From NCBI GenBank assembly GCA_044228505.1, contig JBGAUT010000016.1:43387-107386 (forward strand): DNA of 64,000 nucleotides, given 5' to 3'. A program made the translations under genes and the position numbers. The notes beneath the pieces are model-generated. The model searched no databases and was not told where the DNA came from. It worked only from the letters and a program-made list of their open reading frames with translations. Below are positions 7,786 to 64,000 of the stretch, piece by piece; position 1 is the stretch's first letter, and each line of letters opens with the position of its first letter. Origin of the DNA: Polyangia bacterium. Lineage in GTDB: Bacteria > Myxococcota_A > Polyangia > Palsa-1104 > JAEUJZ01.

Positions 7786-8961
7786 GTGAGACTCTGGGGA
7801 CCATACAAGCCCACACCTCCTAAAACGCAGTGGCGACTGGTGATCTCGGAGCACGGCTCGCGACGCTCGGTCTGTTTCAATTCAGAAACCGAGGCACTGC
7901 ATTTTCGAGAGAATCTGCGGGCACAAGCGGCGGATCTTGCAACTCATTCGCTGACCGCAAGACAGGCGATTGAAGAGTACATCTCGGAAAAAGAGCGAGA
8001 GTGTGTGGCGGTCTCTGTGCTTACGGTGAGGGAACGCCTGATGCGATTCCTTCCGCTCGATACGCCGCTCCGTTACTTCGATGACGTGCTTGCTCAGCAG
8101 ATCTATGATCGCGAGGTCCAGCGGATTACCAAGCGAAGGAAGCCTGTGGCTGCCGCAACCCATCGCGCAACCCTTCGAACCACGAAAGAGTTTTGGCGAT
8201 GGTTGGTGATGCGGAAGTACGTGAATCACAATCCCTGGGCGCAGATTCTACCTGTAGGAAGACTGAATCATGGCAAGCCGCAGCCCACCATTGGCCAGGC
8301 GCAGAGGCTGGAGTCCTATTTGGTGGCTGGTGCGCAGGCGAATGAGGGCAAGCTGGCGCTGCTTCTGCAACTATATTGCGGACTCCGCAGCGGGGAAGTA
8401 TTGGCACTGAAGGTTCGAGACATCGAGCAGGTCGTCATTGCAGGAGAACGGGTGATCCAAGTCTGCGTCGACCGTGGAAAAACCAAGCATGCGCGGCGAG
8501 CGGCTCGCGTCGCACCCCGAGTCGGAGAACTCCTCATTGATTACATCAAGGGTCGACCAGCGGAGCAGAGAGTGTTTGCTGCCGATCGCTCCGCTCCGCC
8601 GAAAGGTGCATGGCTTCACAAGAGACTGGCTCTGATCTGTCAGGAGCTCGGATTGCCACAGTACTGTCCGCATAGCCTGCGCGGCCTCAACGCAACGATT
8701 GCGCTGGAGGGCGGTGCTACGATGGAAGCCATTGCCAAGGTTCTCGGTCATGGCAGCACTGCCGTGACGGCCAAGCACTATGCCAAGCCGGACAGCGTCT
8801 TAAATGCCAGCCTTCGAAGGGTTGCGGAAGTCCTGTCGAGTGCGTCTTCCTACGTGGAAGAGTCGGTGGTATCCGAAGAAGCGGCGGTGTCTGCGGTTGT
8901 GAGTTCGCTCAGTCCCGGTCAGCTCGCGCTGCTGCGCAAGGTAATCCTTCAGCACGGTTGA
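7786..8961 (+). CDS. site-specific tyrosine recombinase / phage-type integrase
   Basis: C-terminal catalytic domain with LRSGEVLAL (Arg), HSLRG (H-x-x-R), LGHGS (His) and HYAKP (Tyr nucleophile). Starts at GTG 7786. Confidence 0.75.
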   Translation: MRLWGPYKPTPPKTQWRLVISEHGSRRSVCFNSETEALHFRENLRAQAADLATHSLTARQAIEEYISEKERECVAVSVLTVRERLMRFLPLDTPLRYFDDVLAQQIYDREVQRITKRRKPVAAATHRATLRTTKEFWRWLVMRKYVNHNPWAQILPVGRLNHGKPQPTIGQAQRLESYLVAGAQANEGKLALLLQLYCGLRSGEVLALKVRDIEQVVIAGERVIQVCVDRGKTKHARRAARVAPRVGELLIDYIKGRPAEQRVFAADRSAPPKGAWLHKRLALICQELGLPQYCPHSLRGLNATIALEGGATMEAIAKVLGHGSTAVTAKHYAKPDSVLNASLRRVAEVLSSASSYVEESVVSEEAAVSAVVSSLSPGQLALLRKVILQHG

Positions 8962-9147: not shown

Positions 9148-9588
9148 ATGCAAGTCGAATCACCAGAAGCACGGACGTGGATCGGGCAGATCATCGGGAA
9201 CCATCGCCTGGTCCGTGTGCTGGGACGTGGCGGTATGGGAATGGTGTTCGAAGCGGTTCACGAGGGAGTGCTAGGGCGGGCAGCGATCAAGATTCTGCGT
9301 CCCGATGTCACCAGCCGAACGGATGTGACGACTCGCTTCTTCAATGAAGCCCGTGCTGCCAATGCCGTCCAGCATCCAGGCATTGTGCGCATCTTCGATT
9401 GTGGATTTACGGAGTCCGGGGTCGCCTATCTGTCGATGGAGTTCTTGGAAGGGGAGTCGCTTCGATCGCGACTGGCCAGGGTGAGGCAGCTACCCACCAA
9501 GACCGCGCTGCGAGTAGCACGTCAGATTGCCTCAGCGCTTGCAGCCGCGCATCGAGTGAAAATCATCCATCGAGATCTCAAACCCGAT
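9148..9588 (+). pseudogene. Hanks-type Ser/Thr protein kinase, N-terminal fragment (subdomains I-VIb) interrupted after HRDLKPD
   Basis: LGRGGMGMVF (Gly loop), AAIKIL (Lys), HPGIVRIF, SMEFLEGESL, IIHRDLKPD. The frame then reads 10 unrelated codons to a stop at 9621. Confidence 0.7.
9581..9588. repeat. 8-bp direct repeat AACCCGAT (left copy) flanking the insertion in the kinase gene
   Basis: An identical octamer recurs at 13847-13854, exactly where kinase homology resumes. Confidence 0.6.
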
Positions 9589-9754
9589 CATCTTCGCTTT
9601 CGTCTGGCGGCGTTGGGATAGGTTCCATTGTGCGAGTGATAGGGCAGGGAACAAAGTTCGGAAACGATCTGCGCGCTCTCGGTCTGGCACAATTGCGTAG
9701 AGGTCACCGATTGTGGCATCAAAGTACGGTACTAAACCAACGATGGAGACAAAG

Positions 9755-11218
9755 ATGAGTGACACCAAGAAGCTGACTACCGCAGCGGGGGCACCAGTTG
9801 TCGACAACCAGAACTCGATGACCGCCGGTCCGCGAGGACCTCTTTTGATGCAAGACATCTGGTTCCTGGAGAAGCTTGCGCATTTCGACCGCGAAGTGAT
9901 TCCAGAGCGTCGCATGCATGCCAAGGGGTCGAGTGCGTATGGATCATTTACCGTAACACACGACATCTCTAAGTACACCCGAGCGAAGATATTCGCTCAG
10001 GTTGGCAAGAAGACCGATCTGTTTGTTCGCTTCTCCACCGTCGCTGGAGAGCGAGGTGCTGCGGATGCAGAGCGCGACATTCGGGGCTTTGCGATCAAGT
10101 TCTATACCGAGGAAGGAAACTGGGATCTGGTTGGCAACAACACGCCGGTATTCTTCCTTCGTGACCCTCTCAAATTTCCAGACCTAAACCATGCGGTGAA
10201 GCGCGATCCGCGAACCAACTTGCGCAGTGCTCGCAACAATTGGGACTTCTGGACCTCGCTACCGGAGGCGCTGCACCAGATTACCATGACCATGAGTGAG
10301 CGAGGAATTCCCTATTCCTATCGACACATGCATGGATTTGGGAGTCACACCTTCAGCTTGATCAACTCCCAGAACGAGCGCTTCTGGGTGAAGTTCCATC
10401 TGCGGACGCAGCAAGGGATCAAGAATCTGTCTGATGCAGAGGCCGAGGCGATCATTGGCAAGGATCGCGAGAGTCACCAGCGAGATCTGTTTGACAGCAT
10501 TGAGAGACGGGACTTTCCTCGCTGGACGCTGTTCATTCAGGTGATGCCGGAACGGGAAGCCGCCACGTGTCCGTACAACCCGTTTGACCTTACCAAAGTC
10601 TGGCTGCACAAGGACTATCCGCTCATCGAAGTGGGCGTGATGGAGCTGAACCGCAATCCCGAAAACTACTTTGCAGAGGTTGAACAGTCGGCGTTCAATC
10701 CGGCGAACGTGGTGCCCGGAATCGGTTTTTCACCAGATAAGATGCTTCAGGGACGACTCTTTTCGTACGGCGATGCCCAGCGCTATCGGCTTGGGGTGAA
10801 TCATCAGTCCATTCCGGTGAATGCGCCTCGCTGTCCGGTCCATAGCTACCATCGTGATGGCGCGATGCGAGTCGATGGAAACTTCGGAGGTCAGCTTGGC
10901 TATGAACCGAATAGCTATGGACAGTGGCAACAGCAGCCGGGCTTTGCGGAACCTCCGCTCTCGCTGGAGGGGTCCGCAGATCACTGGAACCATCGTCAGG
11001 ATGAAGACTACTACTCCCAGCCAGGCTTGCTGTTCCGGCTCATGACGGGAAACCAGCAGCAGACACTGTTTGATAACACTGCGCGAGCGATGGGTGATGC
11101 ACCAAGAGAGATCAAGCTTCGTCACATCGGCAATTGTCTGAAGGCCGACCCCGCGTATGGAGCAGGTGTCGCAAAGGCACTCGGCCTGCCTCTGAGCGAA
11201 ACGCGCAGCTCATCCTAA
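9755..11218 (+). CDS. katA: monofunctional heme catalase (clade-3-like)
   Basis: [63 protein letters not shown] and the heme-ligand region [22 protein letters not shown] precedes ATG 9755; an in-frame ATG at 9713 is also possible. Confidence 0.85.
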
Positions 11219-11239
11219 CGCCCGTGGATCGACTCCGCA

Positions 11240-13699
11240 TCAACACTTGATCCGTTTCATATCGGGATCGTACAGCGGTCGCAGAGACGCGATCGCTGGA
11301 TAGCGCTGCCCGGCAATGTCTACTTCCCACATGCCTCGATCGAGATACTCTTGATCGAGCGCTTGTCCCGCTTCGATCATGGCCAATCCGACGGCTCCTC
11401 CGATGGTGAAGCCATACGAGGCGGCGCGAATGTATCCGACCGGGTGGCCGTTGCGGTAGACAATCTCAGCATGGAACATCAGTGGCTCCGGATCTTTCAC
11501 CAGCACTTGCACCAGGCGTCGCGTTAGCGGTCCTTCTGCTTTTTTGGCGAGCACTGCATCGCGTCCCAGAAATCCACCCGGCTTCTTTAGATCTACCGCA
11601 AAGCCAAGACCTGCCTCCAAGACCGAGTCGGTGTTGTCGATATCGTGACCATAATCACGGTATCCCTTTTCCATGCGCAAGCTGGCCAGCGCCTTGAGTC
11701 CGGCATGTCGTAAACCGAATTCTGATCCGGTTTCTACAATCCGATCATAGACATGGGGGGCTTGCTCGGAGGGGATGTAGAGTTCGTAGCCCAGCTCACC
11801 CAGATAGGTGATGCGGATACAGAGTGCCCGTGCAAAGCCGATGTCGATTTCGCGGGCGGTGCGGAATGGGAATGCCGTATTGCTAAGATCGGTGGTGGTC
11901 ACCCGTTGCAGCAGCTCTCGCGAGCGAGGTCCTTGAATGTTGATCTGCGCGTAGCCAGAGGTCACATCGGTTACAAAGGCGTGTGCGTGCGCCGGGACAT
12001 GGCGACGCATCCAGGTCTCTGCATGCCGATGAGCGGTGTCTGAGGCTACGACCCAGTATCGCTCATCATCGAGCTTGGTAACGGTCAGGTCCGCTTCGAG
12101 CGTGCCGCCCTCGTTGAGCCACTGCGTGTAGGTGATAAGCCCGCTTGGTCCGTCGACTTGGTTGGCCGACAGATAATTGAGAAGGGCTCCTGCGTCCCGA
12201 CCTTGCACCAAGAACTTCGCCATGAACGACATGTCCATCAAGATCACGCCTTCACGGGTCGCTTGATGCTCTGCTTGCCAGTAGGGAAACCAGTTCTGTC
12301 TGCCAAAGGACAATCGCTCGACCTTTGGCTCGATGCCAGGCGGCGCATACCAGTCCGGTCCTTCCCAACCACTGACGTCCTTAAAGTATGCGCCCTGCGC
12401 GGCCAGCCGATCATAGATGGCCGATCTCTTACAGCCGCGTGCGGTCTGCATGGAGCGCGTAGGATAGTGGCACTGATACACCATTCCAAGCGATTCCACC
12501 GTACGGGTGCGACGGTACTCCGGGTTCGACTGGTATGTGTGGAAGCGATCGATGTGCATGCCGGTGACATCACAGTCGGGTCGACCGTTGATGATCCAAT
12601 GGGCCAACACCCGTCCCATGCCACCACCCGTGATGATTCCGATCGAGTTGAGTCCGGCAGCCACAAAGTAGTTCTTTAGTTCTGGTGCTTCTCCGACCAC
12701 CGGACGCAGATCCGCGGTGAAGCTCTCCGGTCCGCAGAAGAATTTTTTGACTCCTGCATCTAGCGAGATGGGAATTCGCTCCATTGCCTTTTGCAGGTAT
12801 GGACCCATTCGCTCCCAGTCCGGACTGATCTCTCCAAAAGAAAAGTCGTCCGGAATACCACCGACTTTCCACGGAGCACAGACTGGCTCGAACAGACCGA
12901 CAAGCAGGCCGCCGACTTCCTCTCGATAGTATCCGTAGGAGCTGGGGTCTTCGAGAACCGGCAGAGAGGCGGTGAGCTGGGGGATCTTCTCTGTGATGAG
13001 ATAGTAGTGTTCTGCAGCCTGCAATGGAACGTTGACCCCGGCTTGGGCTCCGAGCTGACGTGCCCACATTCCGGCGCAGTTTACCACGTATTCTGCTTCG
13101 ATGTTTCCGTAGGGAGTCTGGACGCCAGTGACCACACCACGCTTGGATAGGAGTCCGATGGCAGGCACTCCTTCCAGGATGGTTGCACCTTGCATTCGGG
13201 CCCCTTTGGCAAGTGCCATTGTGATGTCAACGGGATTGGCACGGCCATCTTCCTTGACGTAGAAACCAGCCAAAATGTCGTCGGTGCGGGCCAATGGAAA
13301 GAGCTGTTCTACTTCCTTAGCGGAAATCTCATGGACATCCACTCCGCAGTGTCGATTGAACGCAGAGACACGCCGGTATTCCTCCAATCGGTCTTCATCC
13401 GCTGCGACTTCGATGAATCCGACCTGCTTGAATCCGGTCGATAGTCCAGTTTCTGCTTCGAGCCGCAGGTACAGATCGCGGGAGTACTTCCTCATCTCAG
13501 TCGATGTCTCAGAGGTCGAACCAAACGTCACGATGAGCCCTGCCGCATGCCAGGTCGTGCCAGAGGTGAGCCGATCCCGCTCGAGTACGACTACGTCCTT
13601 CCATCCCATGTGGGCCAGGTGGTATGCGACGGAGGTTCCGATGATTCCACCGCCAATGACGACAACGCGAGCGCGAGCAGGAAGGTTTGTGGGGTACAT
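11240..13699 (-). CDS. FAD-dependent oxidoreductase fused to a GcvT-like folate-binding domain: dimethylglycine/sarcosine dehydrogenase or dimethylglycine oxidase family (819 aa)
   Basis: N-terminal VVVIGGGIIGTSVAYHL Rossmann dinucleotide motif and TTWHAAGL (the covalent-FAD His region of this family). The C-terminal ~350 aa resemble the aminomethyltransferase (GcvT) fold. The size matches DMGDH/DMGO. Confidence 0.8.
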   Translation of the reverse strand: MYPTNLPARARVVVIGGGIIGTSVAYHLAHMGWKDVVVLERDRLTSGTTWHAAGLIVTFGSTSETSTEMRKYSRDLYLRLEAETGLSTGFKQVGFIEVAADEDRLEEYRRVSAFNRHCGVDVHEISAKEVEQLFPLARTDDILAGFYVKEDGRANPVDITMALAKGARMQGATILEGVPAIGLLSKRGVVTGVQTPYGNIEAEYVVNCAGMWARQLGAQAGVNVPLQAAEHYYLITEKIPQLTASLPVLEDPSSYGYYREEVGGLLVGLFEPVCAPWKVGGIPDDFSFGEISPDWERMGPYLQKAMERIPISLDAGVKKFFCGPESFTADLRPVVGEAPELKNYFVAAGLNSIGIITGGGMGRVLAHWIINGRPDCDVTGMHIDRFHTYQSNPEYRRTRTVESLGMVYQCHYPTRSMQTARGCKRSAIYDRLAAQGAYFKDVSGWEGPDWYAPPGIEPKVERLSFGRQNWFPYWQAEHQATREGVILMDMSFMAKFLVQGRDAGALLNYLSANQVDGPSGLITYTQWLNEGGTLEADLTVTKLDDERYWVVASDTAHRHAETWMRRHVPAHAHAFVTDVTSGYAQINIQGPRSRELLQRVTTTDLSNTAFPFRTAREIDIGFARALCIRITYLGELGYELYIPSEQAPHVYDRIVETGSEFGLRHAGLKALASLRMEKGYRDYGHDIDNTDSVLEAGLGFAVDLKKPGGFLGRDAVLAKKAEGPLTRRLVQVLVKDPEPLMFHAEIVYRNGHPVGYIRAASYGFTIGGAVGLAMIEAGQALDQEYLDRGMWEVDIAGQRYPAIASLRPLYDPDMKRIKC

Positions 13700-18950: not shown

Positions 18951-19214
18951 TCAGTGCAGGTTTGGGAGCGCTGACCAAACCTGCGTCGAGAATACCACCA
19001 GCTTGGATACCAGATACGGACCAGTCACAAACAGGGCTACCATTCCCAATAGCAACCGCACGGCGACCGGCAGCGAGGAGTCCGTGATGCCCATCCGCGC
19101 TTGGAGCCACGACGTGACAACGGCGGATAGCACCGCGACCAGCAACACAGGTAGGCTGCACAGCACAGCCAGCCACAGACCCGATGACAGCAGCGGCAAT
19201 AGCGACTCGCTCAT
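18951..19214 (-). CDS. fliQ: type III secretion / flagellar export apparatus protein SctS (FliQ family)
   Basis: 87 aa with two TM helices. PVLLVAVLSAVVTSWLQARMGITDSSLPVAVRLLLGMVALFVTGPYL aligns with the FliQ core (LLVALVTGLIISILQAATQINEMTLSFIPKI...AGPWML). A 4-bp overlap with the upstream gene indicates coupling. Confidence 0.75.
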   Translation of the reverse strand: MSESLLPLLSSGLWLAVLCSLPVLLVAVLSAVVTSWLQARMGITDSSLPVAVRLLLGMVALFVTGPYLVSKLVVFSTQVWSALPNLH

Positions 19215-19864
19215 GAGTACCCCAGAAGCAGGCCGCGATACAGCAGCGTGAATCCATCGCAGACCAGGAACAGCAGCAGCTTAAACGGCAGCGTCACCGC
19301 CCGTACCGACAGCCCACCTAGCTGAAGTCCCGACAGTAGCAGAGCCGCCAGCAGATCGAGAACCAGGAAGGGAAGCAGCAGCACAAAGGCAAGCTGAAAC
19401 GCACGTCGCAGCTCTCCCAGCAGGAAAGCCGCCACCAGCACTGGCAGTTCATTTGGTTCAAGCGTCGCTCCGTGCCGCTGGGCCAGCTTCTGGGTCAGCG
19501 CCTCGACCTGCGCTTTGTCGCCAGCAGGTGTGTGCTCTATCAAAAACTGTCGAAGCGGAGCAGTGCCAACCTGAACCAAGTCTGCCGCCGTCGCTGTCGG
19601 CGGTGAGGTGTTCACCTCGGTAAGGCTGCGCTTGATAAGCGGAGACATGGACAGCGTTGCCAGCGTGAGTCCGAGCAACACAGTCACCAGCAGTGGTGGG
19701 ACTCCTCCTCCGAGACCTCGTCGGAGAACCTGCAGCACGATCGCAACTTTGACGTACGCGAGCAGCGATAGCAGCACAAACAGCAGCAGTGGTAGAAGCG
19801 TCCGTAACAGATCCGGCTGCGACAGCATTAACGCGTGGCTCCGTTTATGCCCGATTGTGGCCAC
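19211..19864 (-). CDS. fliP: type III secretion / flagellar export apparatus protein SctR (FliP family)
   Basis: LPFKLLLFLVCDGFTLLYRGLLLGY matches the FliP signature LPFKLMLFVLVDGWQLL; there are also a signal-like N-terminus and VLLLPFLVLDLLAALLLSGLQ. Starts at GTG. Confidence 0.8.
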   Translation of the reverse strand: MATIGHKRSHALMLSQPDLLRTLLPLLLFVLLSLLAYVKVAIVLQVLRRGLGGGVPPLLVTVLLGLTLATLSMSPLIKRSLTEVNTSPPTATAADLVQVGTAPLRQFLIEHTPAGDKAQVEALTQKLAQRHGATLEPNELPVLVAAFLLGELRRAFQLAFVLLLPFLVLDLLAALLLSGLQLGGLSVRAVTLPFKLLLFLVCDGFTLLYRGLLLGYS

Positions 19865-50853: not shown

Positions 50854-51642
50854 ATGAGTGGGGGGCACAGCTTGCGGGTCGGTCAGCGCTCGTCCATCGG
50901 GAAGCTGATCCTTTTGCCGGAAGCTGACCTGCTCGGTCTGGCCACGGCTCTCGTCGAGTCATCTGCCCATGGGGCGATCGCGGTTGCGCCCCTACCTGAG
51001 TCATTGCTAGCGACGCTGAGACAGCGTCTTCTTCGCCCCGCGACCGTGCGAAAGCCACTTCATCCGCTGCTCCCGGCGCACTGCCCGATATTTGACCATG
51101 AGGTCTGTGACTATCGAGAAAAGGGGCTCACCGTGGCCTTGGTGGCAGACTGGGCGGCCAGTCTGGGTCTACCCTCTCGGCATGTGTTAGCACTCGAACA
51201 AGCGGTCGATGAGCTGTTGCTCAACGCGCTCTACGATGCGCCTCGTGATGAGCAGGGGCAGCCACGGTATGCGGCAGTACTTCCGTCGGAGCGGGTGCTT
51301 CTGCGGGCATTGCCAGGCGAGTCGGCACGAGTTCGTTTTGCCACTGACGGTGTGCGTCTGGCGGTGGGCGTGTCGGATAGGATGGGCAGGCTGCGTCGGC
51401 GAACCGTGCTCGATTACCTGATTCGCTGTGCGACGGCTCAGCAGCGGCACCAAAGTCCGCTGGAAGACAAAAAATCTGGCGCGGGAGTCGGCCTGTTTTT
51501 GACCGCCAGCGCAGCGAGCGAGCTTATCTTTCGGTTGCGTAGCGGGCGGTTGACGGAGATCGTGTTCTGTCAGTATCTCAGTCGGCCGAGGCCACTGCGG
51601 GTGCTGGTGGTCGATGACGATGCGATGGAGCCAAACCGATGA
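50854..51642 (+). CDS. hypothetical protein, translationally coupled to hemN
   Basis: 262-aa ORF overlapping the hemN start by 4 bp; no clear motif. Confidence 0.4.
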   Translation: MSGGHSLRVGQRSSIGKLILLPEADLLGLATALVESSAHGAIAVAPLPESLLATLRQRLLRPATVRKPLHPLLPAHCPIFDHEVCDYREKGLTVALVADWAASLGLPSRHVLALEQAVDELLLNALYDAPRDEQGQPRYAAVLPSERVLLRALPGESARVRFATDGVRLAVGVSDRMGRLRRRTVLDYLIRCATAQQRHQSPLEDKKSGAGVGLFLTASAASELIFRLRSGRLTEIVFCQYLSRPRPLRVLVVDDDAMEPNR

Positions 51643-53006
51643 CCGCAACGCTGCTGCATCCCAACCTGCTGGAGCGCTACGGCAGTGTGCCGCTGCCTCG
51701 ATATACCAGCTATCCACCGGCCAACCTGTGGGGAGGGCGCGACCAAACACTGGCCCAAGAGGCCCTGTCCACCGTTGGTAGCCGTCCACTGTCGCTGTAC
51801 GTTCACGTGCCGTTTTGTCGCAAGCTGTGTCTGTACTGCGGCTGCAACATGCTGGTTACGCGCAGCCAGGATCTGGTCGAGCGCTACCTGCACGCCCTGG
51901 ATGCAGAGGTCGCCCGTGTCGCCGCCTGTCTCCCCGAACGGTCTGAGGTGGTGCAGGTTCATCTGGGCGGAGGCACCCCCACCTATCTGGACGAAGCGCA
52001 GCTCTCGCGGTTGTGGCAATCGCTCGCGAGCCGCTTTCACATTCCACGCGGCATCGAGGCCTCGATCGAGATCCATCCTCCGGTGACGAGCCATGCGCAG
52101 ATGCAGCGACTTGCCGAGCTGGGCTTTGTTCGCGTGTCGATGGGGGTGCAGGACTTCGATCCCATCGTCCAAAAGCGAGTGAATCGGATTCAGCCGTTCG
52201 AGCAGACCCGCGATTTGGTGCTGCTCGCCCGTCAGCTCGGATTTGTCAGCGTCAACATTGATTTGATGTATGGGTTGCCACTGCAAACGGTCGAGCGGTT
52301 TTCCATGACCCTCGACCGCGTCGCGGAGCTGCGTCCGGACCGCGTTGCCCTGTTTGGATATGCGCATATGCCCGCGCTGCGGAAGCATCAGTCGGTGTTT
52401 CGCAGCGAGGAGCTACCGGATGCCACCACTCGTGCCGCCCTCTTTGAGCTGGCGCTGACCCGGCTGCTTGCAATCGGCTATGTTTACGTCGGGCTCGACC
52501 ACTTTGTGTTGCCAGAGGATGAACTGCTCGTTGCTCGCCACAAAGGGGAGCTGCGCCGCAACTTCATGGGCTACACCACCTGCAAGTCGAGCGATGTGCT
52601 GGCGTTTGGTCCGTCGTCGATCTCCGAGATTGGTCGGCACTACGTACAGAACGAGCGAGAGGTCGCAGCCTATTGCGAACGGGTCGAGTCCGGGGTGCTG
52701 CCGGTGGTGCGCGGTTACTCGCTCACCAGCGATGATCTGATTCGCCGCGATCTCATCATGCAGCTTCTGTGCAACTTGGTGATCGATACGGCTGACTTTT
52801 CGATGCGCCACGGGATTGATTTCGAGTCCTACTTCGCGAGCGAACTACGGCTGCTGCAGCCACTTATCAATGACGGTCTGTGCGGCTGGGACGCTGGCAA
52901 GCTACGGATATTGCTTCCGGGTCAGCTTCTGCTTCGAACGGTGGCTGCCATCTTTGATGCGACGCTTCATCAGCCCGCACCACGCCATCACGCAGCGGCG
53001 GTGTGA
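51639..53006 (+). CDS. hemN: oxygen-independent coproporphyrinogen III oxidase (radical SAM HemN family)
   Basis: YVHVPFCRKLCLYCGC (the CxxxCxxC cluster in the HemN context) and the HemN C-terminal domain. Confidence 0.85.
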   Translation: MTATLLHPNLLERYGSVPLPRYTSYPPANLWGGRDQTLAQEALSTVGSRPLSLYVHVPFCRKLCLYCGCNMLVTRSQDLVERYLHALDAEVARVAACLPERSEVVQVHLGGGTPTYLDEAQLSRLWQSLASRFHIPRGIEASIEIHPPVTSHAQMQRLAELGFVRVSMGVQDFDPIVQKRVNRIQPFEQTRDLVLLARQLGFVSVNIDLMYGLPLQTVERFSMTLDRVAELRPDRVALFGYAHMPALRKHQSVFRSEELPDATTRAALFELALTRLLAIGYVYVGLDHFVLPEDELLVARHKGELRRNFMGYTTCKSSDVLAFGPSSISEIGRHYVQNEREVAAYCERVESGVLPVVRGYSLTSDDLIRRDLIMQLLCNLVIDTADFSMRHGIDFESYFASELRLLQPLINDGLCGWDAGKLRILLPGQLLLRTVAAIFDATLHQPAPRHHAAAV

Positions 53007-56669: not shown

Positions 56670-57035
56670 TTAGGTTCGCACTTCGAGAAGCAGGTCGCCG
56701 TGACTGAGGGCGCGGACGGCATCGCTCGTCATCTTCTGCCATCCAATCTGCGGATCGAAGTAGAGGCTCTGCCGTACTTTCTGGCGGTGAGCATCGCGGA
56801 GGAAGTGGACGATTACCGTAATGGCTGAGGAGTTTAGGAAAGTCAGCGACTTAAAATCCATCGCGATGGAACAGTTCCGCTCACTGACCGCTTCCAGCAC
56901 CTTGCGAAGGAACGGGCCCAGAATTCTCTGCGGATAGCGTTCGGCGCAGCGGCCACTCCACTTGAGTAGCACGCCCCCGGAGTCCGGCTGATCGAGTACT
57001 TCGATCGTCAGGTGCTCGGTGACTAGGCCTTCCAT
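56670..57035 (-). CDS. DUF1987 (SiaC-like) partner-switching protein
   Basis: LKWSGRCAERYPQRILGPFL...FKSLTFLNSSAITVIVHFL resembles the SiaC/DUF1987 pattern (SG.S.PE...F...YxNSSS). Confidence 0.5.
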   Translation of the reverse strand: MEGLVTEHLTIEVLDQPDSGGVLLKWSGRCAERYPQRILGPFLRKVLEAVSERNCSIAMDFKSLTFLNSSAITVIVHFLRDAHRQKVRQSLYFDPQIGWQKMTSDAVRALSHGDLLLEVRT

Positions 57036-57454
57036 GACCGTCTTCCTGAGTCGGCCACGTCAGACTCTGGCGATGTGTTGCGGCTATCGATGTTCAGCAT
57101 GCTTCCTCCAAACACACTCAGGGTCGGAATTCCGACTCGCTGCCACTGATGTGTCATGTTGGTGAGCATCAGCAGCTTGTACGATGCACGCGGCGGGCCT
57201 TTCAGCAGTCGAAGCAGAAGCACCAGATTTCGCCAGCCCTCGGCGTTGGCGTAGGACAGAGCGCGCAGATCCAGCACCAGCTCATCGAGGCGGACGCGCT
57301 GCGCTTCTTCATGGATCGACACCAGCAGATCCTGTAGCCACGGCTCTTCGCCAGTCTCCCGAAAGACTCCGCTGATGCGGACGACATTCCCAGGGGACAG
57401 CCCGACCTCGACCACCGTGCTGCCACGACAGACCTTGCGAGTGGCGAGGATCAT
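57023..57454 (-). CDS. second DUF1987 (SiaC-like) protein, tandem paralogue
   Basis: VRISGVFRETGEEPWLQDLL...LRALSYANAEGWRNLVLLL; overlaps the neighbouring genes by 13 bp and 4 bp. Confidence 0.45.
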   Translation of the reverse strand: MILATRKVCRGSTVVEVGLSPGNVVRISGVFRETGEEPWLQDLLVSIHEEAQRVRLDELVLDLRALSYANAEGWRNLVLLLRLLKGPPRASYKLLMLTNMTHQWQRVGIPTLSVFGGSMLNIDSRNTSPESDVADSGRRSWKA

Positions 57455-58011
57455 TGTGCCGTCTCCTCGCTTACCGGATGCGCGTGTGCTTGCTGCGGAG
57501 AAATCCTACGTAGCGCGCTCACCGTCAACCAGCCGGGCCGAGAGATGCGGCACTGGAGCAGACACTCTCCCTCTGCGGCAATTCGAGCCAGGCCCAGCGT
57601 GCTTTGCGTCGATGATGCGCTAGCCAGTCCTTGCTCATAGACGGCGCTTAGTGCAGCCAGGTAGGCCTCTTTGGCACTGGGAAAGAGGCGGATGAACTCG
57701 ATTCGGGCACAGAGCTGCTCCACGCTGACAGAGTCCGGCTCAATCGCATTGCCGATCGCAATGTCCAACTGACCATCGATTTCCTCGACACACAACTCGA
57801 TCGGGCCTGTTTCACCGTGCTTGACGGCATTTTCCAGCAATTCCGAGGCCACCATCGCCATCTGCTCTGCGAGGAGCTCATTGTTCAAGCTCGCCGCAAT
57901 GACCGCCGATACGGCCTGGCGAACCGCCTCAATACAGTCCCATGAAAAGGGCAATCGTAGCCGCAGATGTAAGCGTCCCGGCGCGACGTTGTCGAGGGTA
58001 TTAGAGGCCAT
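57451..58011 (-). CDS. GHKL-type anti-sigma-factor-like Ser/Thr kinase (RsbW/SiaB-like)
   Basis: ASELLENAVKHG (N-box) and a TLGLARIAAEG G-box-like element; 186 aa. Confidence 0.6.
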   Translation of the reverse strand: MASNTLDNVAPGRLHLRLRLPFSWDCIEAVRQAVSAVIAASLNNELLAEQMAMVASELLENAVKHGETGPIELCVEEIDGQLDIAIGNAIEPDSVSVEQLCARIEFIRLFPSAKEAYLAALSAVYEQGLASASSTQSTLGLARIAAEGECLLQCRISRPGWLTVSALRRISPQQAHAHPVSEETAQ

Positions 58012-58330
58012 GCTGCACCGACACTAGGCGGAAGGTGACAGCGTACCACCGAGGGATCCGGGGTGTCGAGGTTGATTCGCAGTCTACCTACGGGTCGGAT
58101 GGGTCGTGCGTACCGGATCCTACAGTCAGACCGGACTCCGCACATGCGTCCTCTCGGCCGAGGGTTCGTGTCCGGCAGAATCTGGCTCTGTGCAGAGTCA
58201 GTAGTCGTGATATCATCGGGGTTTCTCTGTTCAGCGCGAGAGCCACACAGATGCTGACGCGGACACGTCCATATCCCTGATGGGATGAGTCCACTTGGTG
58301 GCTCGCTTTCACGGCAGATTGGGAGTTTTC

Positions 58331-58918
58331 ATGAACCGGTACCAGATTGTCGAATACGAAGCTGCATCGCCCGAAGTTCGAGCCATCTACGATGACGTCA
58401 AGGCCACACTTCAGACCACCAAGCTACCGATTTGGATCAAGGCCCTTGGCGCGTCGCCAACTCTGCTGCGCGGGAACTGGGAAAAGACCAAAGCAGTGCT
58501 CGTCAAAGGTAGCGTTCCGCACCTGCTCAAAGAGCTGATCATTTTCTACATCTCGACCAAGAGAGGCTCGGAATACTGTAGTGCGTGTCATGCGCATGCC
58601 GCTCTGCAGTTGGACCCCAGTCTTACCTATGCGGACCTCAAGAGTCTGGCCAATGGACAGGCCTATGGATCGATGCCCGAGAGCTTCAAGAGCGCGATCA
58701 CCGTTGCCGCCAAGTCAGCACTGTCATCGAGCGAAGTCAGCGATGAGGACTTCAAACTCCTAGAGGATGCCGGATTCACACCGGAGGAGATCGGAGAGAT
58801 CTTGGCGCAGGCCGATCTAGCGGTGATGTTCAACACCATCACCATGACCTACCGGCTGCCCTTGGATCCAGAGTACGTTTCCATGATGCAAGGCCCAGCC
58901 GCCGAACCCTCCGCGTAG
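58331..58918 (+). CDS. carboxymuconolactone decarboxylase (AhpD-like) family protein
   Basis: The CSACHAHA CxxH motif in a CMD fold. GGGAG RBS precedes ATG 58331. Confidence 0.65.
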   Translation: MNRYQIVEYEAASPEVRAIYDDVKATLQTTKLPIWIKALGASPTLLRGNWEKTKAVLVKGSVPHLLKELIIFYISTKRGSEYCSACHAHAALQLDPSLTYADLKSLANGQAYGSMPESFKSAITVAAKSALSSSEVSDEDFKLLEDAGFTPEEIGEILAQADLAVMFNTITMTYRLPLDPEYVSMMQGPAAEPSA

Positions 58919-58935
58919 AGTCCTACAGGAGGACC

Positions 58936-60276
58936 ATGGAACCCAAGGACTGCGTTCCGATTCTCCCACAGCGAGATGTCAGCACGCAGATTCGTTATGA
59001 GACGCTGATTCAGCTCATCGTTCAGCTGAATCAAGCGAGCTCGCTTCCCGCTGCTGCTGCTGCCCTGGTTTCGGGCATCAAGTACATCGTGCAGGTCAAG
59101 CAGTGGCGACTACTCCAGATCGAAGACCACGCCATTGTCGAGATAAGTGGAGACCTGCGCAGTCTTGATCTCAAAGCGGTCGACAAAGAAGATATCTCGG
59201 CCTTCGAGCGGACCGTCTTGGCCACCGGAGCACCCCTCCTGCTCGGTCCAGCAGAGATACTGTCTCGACGATCGGAGTTGCCAGCGCAGTTGGCCGGCAG
59301 TGGTGTGGAACAGATCTATGCGCTGCCAGCGCGCCTTCCGAATGGTACACCGGACAACGTATTCCTGATTGGTACAAGTGGTGCCAGCTTCAGCAGTCTT
59401 GATCTCAAGTTTGCGGGACTGGTCGCACGTTTGTTTTCGGACAAAGTGAAACAGCTTCGCACCGAAGCAAAGCTGCTGCAGGCAGAGCGTGAGATTCGTG
59501 AACGGAATCGTCAACTGGCCGAGACGCTGCATACTCTTGAGGAACGAGACTACGCCATTCAAGAGGACTTGGAACAGGCTCAGGGTTTTCAGCGAAGCCT
59601 CCTGACGATTCTGCCGAAGTCGGTGTCGCTGCAGTTTGCCAGCCTGTATTTGCCCGCAGAGAAGGTCGGGGGCGACATCTACGATGTGTCTGAGATCTCT
59701 CCCGATGTGTTCCGTTTGTTCCTGGCAGATACCACAGGACATGGTGTGCAGGCCTCACTGCGGACCATGGTGCTAAAGACTACGTATGATCGAATCAAAC
59801 TCGATGCCCCCGACCCAGCCTCTGCGCTGTACGCACTCAACCAATCACTCTGTGGCAACTACCCAGGCCTCGAACTGATGTGTACTGCGAGCTGTGTCGA
59901 CATCAGCGCCCGCACGGGAGTGGTCCGGTATGCCAACTGTGGTCAGGTTCCGATCCTGCTGCTGCAGGACCGACTTGTGCAGGAGCTGTATCAGCCCGGA
60001 CCATTTCTGGGAATGTCATCCGAGATTGAGCTGGTGAGTCAGGAGCTGGAGCTTCCCATCGGAGGCCGCATGCTGATAAGTACCGATGGACTGTACGAGC
60101 AGCGCAATCGCAGCGGAGAAGAGCTGGGGGTTGGGAATGTGGGGCGAATCGTGGCGACTGCTCCTCGTCTGGCAGATGCACTGATCCAGCTTACACAGGA
60201 AGTGAACCGGTACGCTCAGGCACCCTCCGAGCAGAATGACGACATCACCGTGCTGGCCATCGAACGAACTTCATGA
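58936..60276 (+). CDS. GAF-domain PP2C-family (SpoIIE/RsbU-like) Ser/Thr phosphatase
   Basis: An N-terminal GAF-like region, a coiled-coil linker, then GGDIYDV...FLADTTGHGVQAS...DGLYE, the PP2C metal-binding motifs. AGGAGG RBS upstream. Confidence 0.8.
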   Translation: MEPKDCVPILPQRDVSTQIRYETLIQLIVQLNQASSLPAAAAALVSGIKYIVQVKQWRLLQIEDHAIVEISGDLRSLDLKAVDKEDISAFERTVLATGAPLLLGPAEILSRRSELPAQLAGSGVEQIYALPARLPNGTPDNVFLIGTSGASFSSLDLKFAGLVARLFSDKVKQLRTEAKLLQAEREIRERNRQLAETLHTLEERDYAIQEDLEQAQGFQRSLLTILPKSVSLQFASLYLPAEKVGGDIYDVSEISPDVFRLFLADTTGHGVQASLRTMVLKTTYDRIKLDAPDPASALYALNQSLCGNYPGLELMCTASCVDISARTGVVRYANCGQVPILLLQDRLVQELYQPGPFLGMSSEIELVSQELELPIGGRMLISTDGLYEQRNRSGEELGVGNVGRIVATAPRLADALIQLTQEVNRYAQAPSEQNDDITVLAIERTS

Positions 60277-62195: not shown

Positions 62196-63020
62196 TTGCG
62201 GCACAATCGGCGCATGACTCGTCCCTCTGAAAGAGACCTTGATCTCTTGGTTGATGCGCTGCGGCCACTGTCGCAGCTGGTCAGACCGTACTTCGATGGA
62301 CTGGAGCGCATCCCTGATTCCCGGCCGCTGCTGTTGGTTGGGAATCACACGCTCTACGGAGTCATCGACCTGCCATTCCTGTTCACAGAGCTTTGGCATA
62401 AAAAGCGCATCTGCATTCGCGGGTTGGGAGATCATTTTCACTTCAAAGTTCCTCTGTGGCGGGACTTCTTGGTTCGCTTTGGTGCCGTGGAAGGAACTCC
62501 CGAAAATTGTGCCCAGTTGATGCGACAAGGTGAATCGATCCTGGTCTTCCCTGGTGGCTCGCGAGAAGTGTTCAAGCGCAAAGGCGAGCAGTATCGGCTG
62601 ATATGGAAAGAGCGACTTGGCTTTGCTCGGCTCGCGATGGCGTATCGCTGCACCATCATTCCTTTCGCTGCGGTTGGTGCCGATGACTGTTACGACATTG
62701 TGTTCGATGGCGAAGAACTGCTCGCGACTCCGCTTGGTCGTTTGGCGCAGCGAATGGGATTGAAGCCTGATATGGCAGTACCGATCTCGCGGGGACTGCT
62801 CGGCACGCCGCTGCCTCGGCCAGAGCGCTTCTACTTTTCGTTCGGGGATCCGATTGTCGCGGAAGGGGATGCTACGGACTTGGATGCGGTTCGAGCCTTG
62901 CGCGATCGGACCCATGCTGCGGTGCGGGCTCGCTTGGATCACCTACTCAAGGTGCGAGCACAGGACCAGGATCGACCCCTGACCCGGCGACTGCTACGTG
63001 CGATCGGCGATCTCTTCTGA
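62196..63020 (+). CDS. lysophospholipid (1-acyl-sn-glycerol-3-phosphate) acyltransferase, PlsC family
   Basis: VGNHTLYGVID (the H-x4-D acyltransferase motif) and VFPGGSRE (the substrate-binding motif). Confidence 0.75.
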   Translation: MRHNRRMTRPSERDLDLLVDALRPLSQLVRPYFDGLERIPDSRPLLLVGNHTLYGVIDLPFLFTELWHKKRICIRGLGDHFHFKVPLWRDFLVRFGAVEGTPENCAQLMRQGESILVFPGGSREVFKRKGEQYRLIWKERLGFARLAMAYRCTIIPFAAVGADDCYDIVFDGEELLATPLGRLAQRMGLKPDMAVPISRGLLGTPLPRPERFYFSFGDPIVAEGDATDLDAVRALRDRTHAAVRARLDHLLKVRAQDQDRPLTRRLLRAIGDLF

Positions 63021-63124
63021 ACAGATGCGCTTGTGACATCAACGAATTGACGTTCGTTTCGTCGGCGATCCATATTCCGCGCAGATTGGCCGGAAACAGG
63101 CTGTGGCGTGGAAGGAGATTTGTG

Positions 63125-64000
63125 ATGAAGCGACTTTCGTGGATGATGTGTGGTGCCCTGTTGGTGCTTGCTGATGGGGGTTGCACGGAGTCGGGTGGTG
63201 GGCAGCCTGGGTCCGGTCCTCGGGGTGAAAAGGGTGATCCAGGAGACACCGGCGCAAAAGGTGACAAGGGGGACAAAGGCGAGCCTGGCGCGATGGGGGC
63301 AGCGGGAGTAGCCGGTGCCACCGGTCCGATGGGACCGATGGGTGTGCAAGGTAGCAAGGGCGACAAGGGAGATCCGGGCTCACCGGGAGCGACAGGCGCG
63401 ACCGGAGCGACAGGTTCGACCGGAGCGACAGGTTCAACCGGAGCCGCAGGCGCAACCGGAGCCACAGGCGCAACCGGAGCCAAGGGCGATCGCGGAGACA
63501 AAGGTGACCCGGGACCGCAAGGACCGACCGGCCCTGCGGGCAGTGGGGCCTACGCCGAAGATGTGGCGACCTTTGCTGGTTTCACGACCACGACGACGTC
63601 CGGAGCGGTGACAAATGGCCGCTTCGGAATGCACACCCTGTGCGCCGCTGCGTTCCCTGGATCGCATCTGTGTCACTACAGCGAGTATGCCTTCACAAAC
63701 TCTGCGGTCAGTCCCCCCACGGACGGTGCCTGGATCGATCCTTCCTACACGGTCGGGATTGCGGGCGTGCGGCAGTTTTCAGGAACCAGTTGTGATAGCT
63801 GGACGCAGGTTGGCTCGGGCTATTACGGGGTCTACATCTCAACGGCTGGGGCCGCGATGACCACGGACTGCGTGAAGCGCAAAGCACTTGCTTGCTGCAA
63901 CAGTCCAGCCCGCACCAAGTTTGTTGGATTTACCACTGCAACGACCAGTGGCAACGCGGGTGGTCGCATCAAGATGCATCAGATGTGCGTCGCTGAGTTT
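63125..64000 (+). CDS. collagen-like triple-helix repeat lipoprotein with duplicated Cys-containing C-terminal module; 3' end beyond window
   Basis: MKRLSWMMCGALLVLADGGCT, a lipoprotein signal. About 45 uninterrupted Gly-X-Y triplets (GEKGDPGDTGAKGDKGDKGEPG...). Then two copies of FxGFTTxTTSG..GRxxMHxxC. There is no stop before base 64000. Confidence 0.7.
   Translation, partial: MKRLSWMMCGALLVLADGGCTESGGGQPGSGPRGEKGDPGDTGAKGDKGDKGEPGAMGAAGVAGATGPMGPMGVQGSKGDKGDPGSPGATGATGATGSTGATGSTGAAGATGATGATGAKGDRGDKGDPGPQGPTGPAGSGAYAEDVATFAGFTTTTTSGAVTNGRFGMHTLCAAAFPGSHLCHYSEYAFTNSAVSPPTDGAWIDPSYTVGIAGVRQFSGTSCDSWTQVGSGYYGVYISTAGAAMTTDCVKRKALACCNSPARTKFVGFTTATTSGNAGGRIKMHQMCVAEF

Follow-up and report, generated by a model that had tools for sequence, protein, structure and literature searches.

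Does a bacterial locus that combines a kinase-like protein and a phosphatase with two small SiaC-like proteins operate as a partner switch, and can both of the small proteins be its phosphorylation targets? The question is raised by five genes at positions 56670 to 60276 of a 64,000-nucleotide stretch of DNA (the whole of which is called the window here) from a Polyangia bacterium (assembly GCA_044228505.1, contig JBGAUT010000016.1, positions 43,387 to 107,386). Partner switching is a general means by which bacteria answer a phosphorylation signal with an exchange of protein partners. An earlier reading of the locus, made from the DNA letters and referred to below as the sequence-only reading, had proposed the kinase, phosphatase, and acceptor triad of a Sia-type switch. 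A cassette of the Rsb/Sia type is retained from that proposal, but a DUF1987 assignment by hidden Markov model (HMM), a match to SiaB, and a second acceptor are not. We regard it as moderately probable that the locus is a self-contained Ser-phosphorylation partner-switching cassette, in which protein A would be the acceptor, protein B an alternative partner of the kinase-like protein K, and an AhpD-like protein a redox element coupled to the switch.

Layout of the five-gene cassette

The overall layout given by the sequence-only reading, with three overlapping minus-strand genes and divergently transcribed CMD and phosphatase genes, was borne out for all five open reading frames (ORFs). We call the minus-strand genes A, B, and K and the plus-strand genes CMD and PP2C. 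Gene A (56670-57035) encodes a 121-amino-acid (aa) SiaC/STAS-like phospho-acceptor candidate of a subtype designated T2, gene B (57023-57454) encodes a 143-aa, strongly diverged SiaC/STAS-like paralog that lacks the acceptor Ser, and gene K (57451-58011) encodes a 186-aa RsbW-like GHKL protein that is a putative Ser kinase or binding partner. A divergent intergenic region of 319 bp (58012-58330) separates K from CMD (58331-58918), which encodes a 195-aa CMD/AhpD-like protein. The last gene, PP2C (58936-60276), starts 17 nt past the CMD stop and encodes a 446-aa SpoIIE/RsbU-type phosphatase. The CMD ORF reaches upstream to a TTG at 58295, and independent gene calls on identical and related DNA favored the ATG at 58331 as its start. 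The K stop overlaps the B start by 4 nt, and B overlaps A by 13 nt; both overlaps are also present in a cassette with 89 to 90% identity (L087; related loci are designated by such numbers).

The five genes are real and not chance ORFs, because each of them has orthologs at 34 to 98% identity and the five co-occur in two arrangements. At least 34 sample blocks from public assemblies contain the exact K protein, flanked in the same way by a PBP1A gene and a GNAT gene, and the sequence therefore represents a real, recurrent environmental genome. The relatives of K indicate an origin in Myxococcota, probably in Polyangia. An alignment of the intergenic region with those of L087 and L088 showed 91% column identity. 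A weak candidate for a sigma-70-like promoter was noticed by eye about 35 nt upstream of the K start (-35 hexamer TCGACA, 18-nt spacer, -10 hexamer TACGCT), and its -35 hexamer is TTGACA in L087. An automatic promoter and terminator scan of the locus found no promoter site and was uninformative.

Protein A, a SiaC-like acceptor candidate

The sequence-only reading had described A and B as DUF1987/SiaC-like proteins. Their relatedness to SiaC is upheld by fold and profile comparisons, but HMM searches did not confirm the family assignment. Protein A scored 12.2 bits (E=0.15) against the SiaC/DUF1987 model PF09345, below its gathering threshold of 24.5, and B had no match; DUF1987 membership by HMM was thus rejected for both proteins as subthreshold. 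Protein A was also below threshold for STAS (PF01740; 17.1 bits, threshold of 22.6), does not have the D-S-S-G-L phospho-motif, and scored 31.6 bits against the NCBIfam slr1659 superfamily model (curated cutoff of 100).

An AlphaFold2 (AF2) model of A and structure comparison revealed a SiaC-like three-dimensional fold, with SiaC as the structurally nearest protein and RsbV and SpoIIAA almost as close. Helix 2 begins at residue 69 in this model, and Ser69 aligns to T68 of SiaC, the phosphosite at the N terminus of helix 2 in that protein (PMC7647112, PMC8457831). The Ser69 codon (56829-56831) is part of the motif F-L-N68-S69-S70-A-I-T. A phosphorylatable Thr or Ser at the N terminus of helix 2, in an L-N-T-S-type motif, is therefore present in A (L-N68-S69-S70) and absent from B.

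A word-index search with A recovered 5 homolog clusters. HMMER searches with a profile of A homologs retrieved 703 cluster representatives (50% identity) at E<=1e-3, of which 267 reached E<=1e-10. Almost all of these proteins were about 120 aa long and matched end-to-end. Among 154 A-family proteins, G28 never varies; N68 occurs in 146, S69 in 151 (with Thr in two more), and S70 in 124; W26, R33, P35, W99, and Q100 are near-invariant. Scans of 54 members gave matches to the slr1659 superfamily model in 50, to STAS in 23, and to SiaC in 10 (SiaC matches being counted at E<=0.01), all of them weak. These results place the A family, which is unnamed, between slr1659, STAS, and SiaC.

Protein B, a paralog with Ala at the acceptor position

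The corresponding motif of B is Y-A-N70-A71-E-G-W, with the Ala71 codon at 57242-57244. The acceptor column is Ala in all B orthologs, which have either Y-A-N-A-x or, in the L002 lineage, Y-S-T-A-D. No Pfam model, including DUF1987, matched B, the NCBIfam slr1659 superfamily model gave 16.9 bits (cutoff of 100), and BLAST detected no similarity between B and A. An hhalign comparison of the A1 and A2 profiles (E=0.0038, 85 columns) set Y-A-N70-A71-E-G of B on F-L-N68-S69-S-A of A, and a broad A-family HMM matched B at E=1.1e-4, as well as the B orthologs of other loci. The AF2 model of B has a predicted local distance difference test (pLDDT) score of 71 and the same core strand and helix order as A; its best Foldseek matches were SpoIIAA (6e-4) and SiaC (2e-3). 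Residues 112 to 143 were modeled with low confidence (pLDDT <50). The tail of B ends in G-R-R-S-W-K-A (57026-57040), which is kept in close orthologs (66 to 98% identity) and missing in L004-type, L002, and L091 proteins.

Because the acceptor column is Ala in every B ortholog, B is a SiaC/STAS-like paralog whose canonical site is closed to phosphorylation. The sequence-only reading had proposed a duplicated acceptor, had suggested looking for the phospho-residue in both paralogs, and had named the absence of this residue as evidence against itself. The residue is found in A (Ser69, in 151 of 154 family members) and is absent from B alone, in which all orthologs have Ala, and the idea of two acceptors was given up.

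The scores of B-type proteins also bear on their origin. These proteins score higher with an HMM of a second subtype (T1) than with the T2 HMM, except for one distant weak match (L048), and graded intermediates between T1 and B were detected (L016, 50 bits; L009, 36 bits). Together, the scores and the intermediates suggest that B is a degenerate descendant of the T1 paralog that normally follows K.

Protein K, an RsbW-like GHKL protein

Protein K contains an N-box, E57-L-L-E60-N61-A-V-K-H-G66 (57814-57843), and a G2-like motif, L139-G-L-A-R-I-A-A-E-G148 (57568-57597). Asn88 (codon 57748-57750) stands at the position of the G1-box Asp, the residue that binds adenine in GHKL ATPases. The match of K to HATPase_c_2 (PF13581; E=4.9e-5, 23.8 bits) was below the cutoff of 27.4 and covered only the N-terminal half of the protein, and the NCBIfam slr1658 superfamily model gave 27.2 bits (cutoff of 100). 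When a broad K-family profile was compared with PDB sequences, RsbW (6m36_A) was the best match (E=1e-3), followed by the Rv1364c kinase domain and SpoIIAB (about 0.05); no SiaB chain was found among the PDB sequence matches of K profiles at E<=10. The profile alignment puts Asn88 of the K family on the G1-box Asp of RsbW.

We compared 58 diverse K-family members. E57, E60, N61, G140, R143, and E147 are invariant in these proteins, and three segments are essentially invariant, i.e., the N-box (E57-L-L-E60-N61-A-V-K-x-G), W-I-R-G-F-x-D-P-x-E-A-Y, and S-G-L-G-L-x-R-I-A-Y-E-G. Position 88 is N in 41 members, S in 13, and H in 3, and it is never Asp. K thus appears to be a GHKL protein that resembles RsbW but has an unusual nucleotide pocket. 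The sequence-only reading had seen a GHKL kinase resembling RsbW or SiaB; the resemblance holds for RsbW and extends to slr1658, but no SiaB match was obtained and the G1-box Asp is missing. Three features make kinase activity of K likely: its N-box is strictly conserved, A keeps its acceptor Ser, and the partner phosphatase is intact. In addition, the representative search recovered a natural fusion protein (P0042, 298 aa) with a K-family domain at residues 11 to 141 and an A-family domain at residues 174 to 297 (motif Y-F-N-S-G-T). As a Rosetta-stone link, this fusion supports a predicted direct interplay between K and A.

Phosphatase with a conserved N-terminal domain

The PP2C assignment made by the sequence-only reading was confirmed by a match to SpoIIE (PF07228) above the threshold (E=2.9e-35, 122.4 bits). 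The protein comprises an N-terminal domain (residues 1 to about 165), a linker (about 166 to 215), and a PP2C domain (257 to 444); the linker is presumed to be helical because of its sequence character and weak coiled-coil-type matches in relatives. All four metal-site motifs that characterize the family are present, namely GGD245 (59668-59676), GHG268 (59737-59745), TDG383 (60082-60090), and DDIT435 (60238-60249). The best solved relative of the PP2C domain is the PP2C domain of SiaA (6k4e; E=6.5e-9), followed by RssB and Rv1364c. The SiaA model NF038263 gave 48.8 bits (cutoff of 700) and aligned only at model positions 368 to 655 of 658 (i.e., the PP2C part).

The N-terminal 165 residues are conserved among orthologs. 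The GAF domain that the sequence-only reading had placed in this region was not recovered. No Pfam model, GAF included, matched residues 1 to 219 of the phosphatase or of its orthologs at E<=10, a profile of the N terminus matched no PDB sequence, and a comparison with a bona fide GAF-STAS protein by hhalign gave E=0.57 (i.e., no similarity). With these three sequence searches negative, GAF was rejected at the sequence level; a cryptic fold of the GAF or PAS type is possible. In the wider family described below, the phosphatases carry other sensor domains at the N terminus (PAS and a subthreshold CHASE4/dCache-type match). No hydrophobic membrane segment was noticed in the phosphatase sequence.

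CMD/AhpD-like protein

The CMD protein passed the PF02627 cutoff (32.1 bits; cutoff of 23) and matched TIGR01926, a model of peroxidase-related enzymes, over its full length (E=1.2e-8, residues 17 to 188). It has a CxxCxxH motif, E-Y-C83-S-A-C86-H87-A-H89 (Cys codons 58577-58579 and 58586-58588), and C83-S-A-C86-H-A-H89 is kept in all four CMD orthologs compared, in agreement with the AhpD/CMD-family protein with a redox Cys/His motif foreseen by the sequence-only reading. CMD is the most conserved member of the cassette, with identities of 98, 76, and 69% to L087, L002, and L091, respectively. The other four proteins are about 90% identical to those of L087; identities to L002 and L091 are 44 to 51% for K, A, and PP2C and 34 to 41% for B.

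Conservation and relocation of the cassette

The five genes are kept in the divergent layout in the window, in L087-L090 (about 90% identity), and in L099-L102. In L002/L003 and L091/L092 (about 45 to 50% identity), they are kept in a convergent layout, with K-B-A followed by convergent PP2C and CMD. The flanks of L087-L090, which include rve/DDE transposase genes and genes for YdjM, an HbpS-like protein, a GAF-STAS protein, and a methyltransferase, are unlike those of the window; PBP1A and GNAT genes flank the cassette in the window and in L099-L102. Because the five genes recur in two layouts with unrelated flanks, the cassette appears to be a functional unit whose genes relocate together.

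The phosphatase gene directly follows CMD in the window, L002, L087, L091, L094, L095, and L097. A more distant CMD (about 60% identity) is encoded in L094, L095, and L097, where it ends 0 nt before the PP2C start. A metagenome scan with CMD returned only six contigs, mostly short, by which CMD-PP2C pairs were gained and no further full cassette.

A K-B pair without A, PP2C, or CMD was observed in L004-L006 (in L004, K at 9414-10004 and B at about 10001-10417). This pair is convergent with a gene for a 1064-aa protein that contains 7TMR-DISM, GAF, and Hanks-type Ser/Thr kinase domains. The occurrence of K and B without A and the phosphatase is consistent with K:B as a unit.

A wider family of related loci

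Scanning of species-representative genomes with a K alignment yielded at least 256 loci; 80 were kept, and the counts below refer to these 80. The loci are mostly from Myxococcota (Polyangia, Anaeromyxobacter, Kofleriaceae, and Myxococcaceae), and others are from Leptospiraceae and other Spirochaetia, Thermoanaerobaculia, and Desulfobacterales. Within 8 kb, an A/B-family gene is present at 78 of the 80 loci and a PP2C gene at 56. A methyltransferase-like gene (about 465 aa) is found at 37 and a B-type gene at 9, and CMD is found at none. At least two SiaC-like genes are carried by 20 loci. The sequence-only reading had treated the duplicated SiaC-like genes as a local peculiarity; these counts show instead that paired SiaC-like proteins recur in the family and are no novelty of this locus.

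The recurrent gene order is K, T1 (Y-M-N-S-S-T-x-T-P), the methyltransferase-like gene, and PP2C, to which some loci add T2 (H-F-N-S-S-T-I-T-A) on the opposite strand. A Polyangia variant has the order T2-K-B. Protein A of the window scored 105 bits with the T2 model and 80 with the T1 model. Where the order was examined (17 loci), the methyltransferase-like gene lies between T1 and PP2C; examples are L047 (3010-4416), L064 (8767-10158), and L067 (8889-10292), with 34 other loci. Its product has a weak C-terminal class-I match (Methyltransf_25) and an N-terminal region of 260 residues without assignment. In the window clade, the methyltransferase-like gene is absent and CMD lies upstream of the phosphatase gene, at the place where the methyltransferase-like gene sits in the wider family. 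At one Leptospirales locus (L029), an adenylate/guanylate cyclase gene (10224-11570; PF00211, E=3.8e-49) was observed between the methyltransferase-like gene and PP2C, and the cyclase is a possible nucleotide-cyclase output in that lineage.

Search for an output

The sequence-only reading had seen no diguanylate cyclase in view, and our searches agree with it. No window ORF of at least 150 aa contains a GG[DE]EF motif, and a Pfam scan of 43 window ORFs detected no sigma factor, cyclase, or GGDEF domain. The conserved cassette of relatives likewise contains no diguanylate cyclase. Neither a methyltransferase-like partner nor extra K, A, B, or PP2C paralogs were found elsewhere in the window. 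PADLOC gave no match for any of the five proteins, and a role in anti-phage defense was rejected on this ground.

Proposed mechanism

From the gene content, folds, motifs, and linkage described above, we infer a mechanism that assigns kinase activity to K and predicts binding partners, a direction of signal flow, and an output. K would bind unphosphorylated A and phosphorylate Ser69, and PP2C would strip the phosphate from A in response to a trigger acting on the N-terminal sensor domain of the phosphatase. Which partner A binds would then depend on its phosphorylation state. By homology with known switches, this core cycle (phosphorylation of Ser69 by K and its reversal by PP2C) is quite likely to operate. 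B would be a stable competing partner or pseudo-substrate of K that is not switched off via the canonical site. K:B and K:A would be the two complexes between which the switch moves, and A in its dephosphorylated form would dislodge B, or set K free, to act on a target. Such a competitor or pseudo-substrate role is most probably that of B, as suggested by its A-like fold, the lack of an acceptor Ser, its translational coupling to K, and the K-B pairs that occur without A and PP2C. In the weakest step of the scheme, CMD would couple the switch to the redox chemistry of thiols or peroxide, whether by sensing together with the phosphatase or by being the enzyme under regulation. The gene of this CxxCxxH protein shows tight linkage to that of the phosphatase, and the protein is highly conserved; it most probably provides this tie.

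Several points weigh against this scheme. None of A, B, and K attains the curated threshold of any named family in Pfam or NCBIfam. K has no G1 Asp and resembles known kinases only in its N-terminal half, and its ATP binding and kinase activity are thus putative. In L002-type B, a Ser-Thr directly precedes the Ala (Y-S-T-A-D-G), so that a noncanonical phosphosite is possible. The case for B as a competitor is one of homology and gene order, and that for a tie between CMD and the switch is one of gene neighborhood. Finally, no output protein was found. Because the scanned window ORFs contain no GGDEF, sigma factor, or cyclase and the flanks vary among relatives, the output is either inside the cassette or encoded elsewhere.

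Alternative explanations

A Sia-type switch with an enzyme output is possible, although we do not consider it probable. Unphosphorylated A (or B) would here bind and activate the co-encoded CMD, as SiaC does SiaD. This idea draws on the structural proximity of A to SiaC and on the N-(T/S)-S motif common to both, which SiaC uses to contact SiaD. It also draws on the position of CMD in an "effector slot" just upstream of the phosphatase gene, which elsewhere holds the methyltransferase-like gene (present at 37 of the 80 loci; order examined in 17) and, at one locus, a cyclase gene in addition, and on the high conservation of CMD within the cassette, as expected for an enzyme. However, a contact of CMD with A or B is purely hypothetical, and a CMD gene placed 17 nt (window) or 0 nt (L094, L095, and L097) before PP2C fits an input accessory equally well. 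The stalk of the SiaD type that is bound by SiaC also has no counterpart in the 195-aa CMD.

A classical anti-sigma switch, in which K sequesters a remotely encoded sigma factor and A (with B) acts as an anti-anti-sigma factor, seems unlikely. It is true that the anti-sigma kinase RsbW, followed by SpoIIAB, heads the solved matches of the K family and that A is nearly as similar to RsbV and SpoIIAA as to SiaC. However, there is no sigma factor gene in the conserved cassette or among the 43 Pfam-scanned window ORFs, and the flanks differ between relatives, so that no conserved neighbor can be the target. In the wider family, the conserved partners are the methyltransferase-like protein and another protein of the SiaC-like kind, and a sigma factor is not among them.

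We give still less credence to K as a pseudokinase, i.e., a binding-only module, with the Ser of A being structural or phosphorylated by another kinase, such as one of the Hanks type. The replacement of the G1-box Asp in all 58 diverse K-family members and the restriction of the GHKL match to the N-terminal half would fit this explanation, as would the K-B pair of L004-L006, which stands beside a large GAF/Hanks-kinase gene without A and PP2C. It is opposed by the strict conservation of the N-box Glu and Asn, the G2-like SGLGL, and the invariant Arg and Glu; a PP2C with an intact metal site at 56 of 80 loci and the Ser of A in 151 of 154 proteins favor a real phospho-cycle. It is very improbable that CMD-PP2C and K-B-A are separate systems that merely adjoin each other, as their divergent transcription in the window and the short contigs L094, L095, and L097 (where K-B-A near CMD-PP2C cannot be demonstrated) might allow, because all five genes remain linked in two layouts, both at about 90% and at about 45 to 50% identity, and move together between contexts, some of which are transposase-flanked.

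The favored Rsb/Sia-type cassette can be extended into a more specific, speculative picture, which we hold with low confidence. The cassette would switch partners with neither a sigma factor nor a cyclase. B, as a degenerate SiaC-like protein that cannot be phosphorylated, would itself be the output-side partner of K, and the switch, under the control of A and phospho-A, would gate the thiol-peroxidase-like AhpD enzyme post-translationally or be gated by it. The window would then represent an offshoot of a large, unnamed Myxococcota/Leptospiraceae/Thermoanaerobaculia family that often has two SiaC-like paralogs and a swappable enzyme slot, occupied by a methyltransferase-like, cyclase, or AhpD-like protein.

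Other genes in the window

A second RsbW-like protein (262 aa) is encoded on the plus strand at 50854-51642, with an HATPase_c_2 match at residues 95 to 235 that is just below threshold (E=6.8e-6). Its gene overlaps the start of a HemN-like radical-SAM gene (51639-53006) by 4 nt, and the protein matched neither the K-family HMM nor any entry in PADLOC. An 18-bp tandem repeat with 5.3 copies (GGAGCGACAGGCGCAACC, 89% matches) was found at 63386-63480 inside overlapping ORFs; in one of several possible frames, the minus-strand ORF 62947-63501 across the repeat reads proline-rich PVAPVAP. Genes for a phage-type integrase (7786-8961), a catalase (9713-11218), an FliP-family export protein (19211-19864), and a CheR-TPR methyltransferase (494-1849) are also present in the window, and none of these four genes is linked to the cassette in relatives.

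Relationship to known systems

The SiaABCD system of Pseudomonas aeruginosa (SiaA, PP2C phosphatase; SiaB, kinase; SiaC, DUF1987 protein; SiaD, diguanylate cyclase) is the nearest in three respects: how A folds, the motif that A carries, and the phosphatase domain. In contrast to that system, A and B here are below the PF09345 threshold, K has no detectable SiaB sequence match, and there is no diguanylate cyclase; the cassette has instead an extra paralog, predicted to be nonphosphorylatable, and an AhpD-like protein. The SiaA model is not matched in its N-terminal two-thirds by the phosphatase here, in which no membrane segment was seen, whereas SiaA spans the membrane twice and contains a HAMP domain (PMC7647112). 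The Rsb and SpoIIA switches of Bacillus (RsbV-RsbW-RsbU/P and SpoIIAA-SpoIIAB-SpoIIE) are similar in the SpoIIAA-like fold of A and B, the match of K to RsbW, and the SpoIIE/RsbU-type PP2C. They differ from the cassette in having a linked sigma factor, an acceptor motif of the form D-S-S-G-L and not N-S-S-(A/T)-I, and Asp at the G1 position that is Asn or Ser in K.

Among named HMMs, those of Synechocystis Slr1658 and Slr1659 (NF047703 and NF047705) score best for K, A, and B, but values of 17 to 32 bits against cutoffs of 100 make the three proteins distant relatives and not members. Genetic evidence connects Slr1658, by an unknown mechanism, with redox and iron acclimation and with the expression of pgr5 (PMC7555055, PMC6525291). 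The CMD protein is an AhpD/CMD-family member by the Pfam threshold, CxxCxxH, and its full-length match to TIGR01926; unlike the usual AhpD, it is not encoded beside AhpC or another peroxiredoxin but forms an operon-like pair with PP2C.

RsfA of Mycobacterium tuberculosis, one of two antagonists of a single switch, is not known to be under phosphorylation control. Two antagonists per switch are known from RsfA/RsfB with UsfX in that species and from RsbV1/RsbV2 with RsbW in Chlamydia (PMC8256260). The cassette resembles these systems in having one kinase-like partner and two STAS-type antagonists that differ in regulation. Those systems control sigma factors, however, and B here is far more diverged and translationally coupled to K, with an AhpD-like protein added. 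To our knowledge, few outputs of partner switches other than sigma factors are known, examples being the diguanylate cyclases controlled by SiaC, HsbA, and BgrV.

The cassette is a conserved, uncharacterized variant of a well-known type of switch. It does not overturn current understanding and will not surprise specialists, but it widens the known range of partner switches. The locus samples a sizeable family of SiaC-like and RsbW-like proteins (703 cluster representatives and at least 256 loci) that Pfam and NCBIfam do not capture. The conserved association with an AhpD-like CxxC protein suggests that either the input or the output is a redox one, and the natural loss of the acceptor site in one of two paralogs may serve as a model for pseudo-substrate or decoy regulation.

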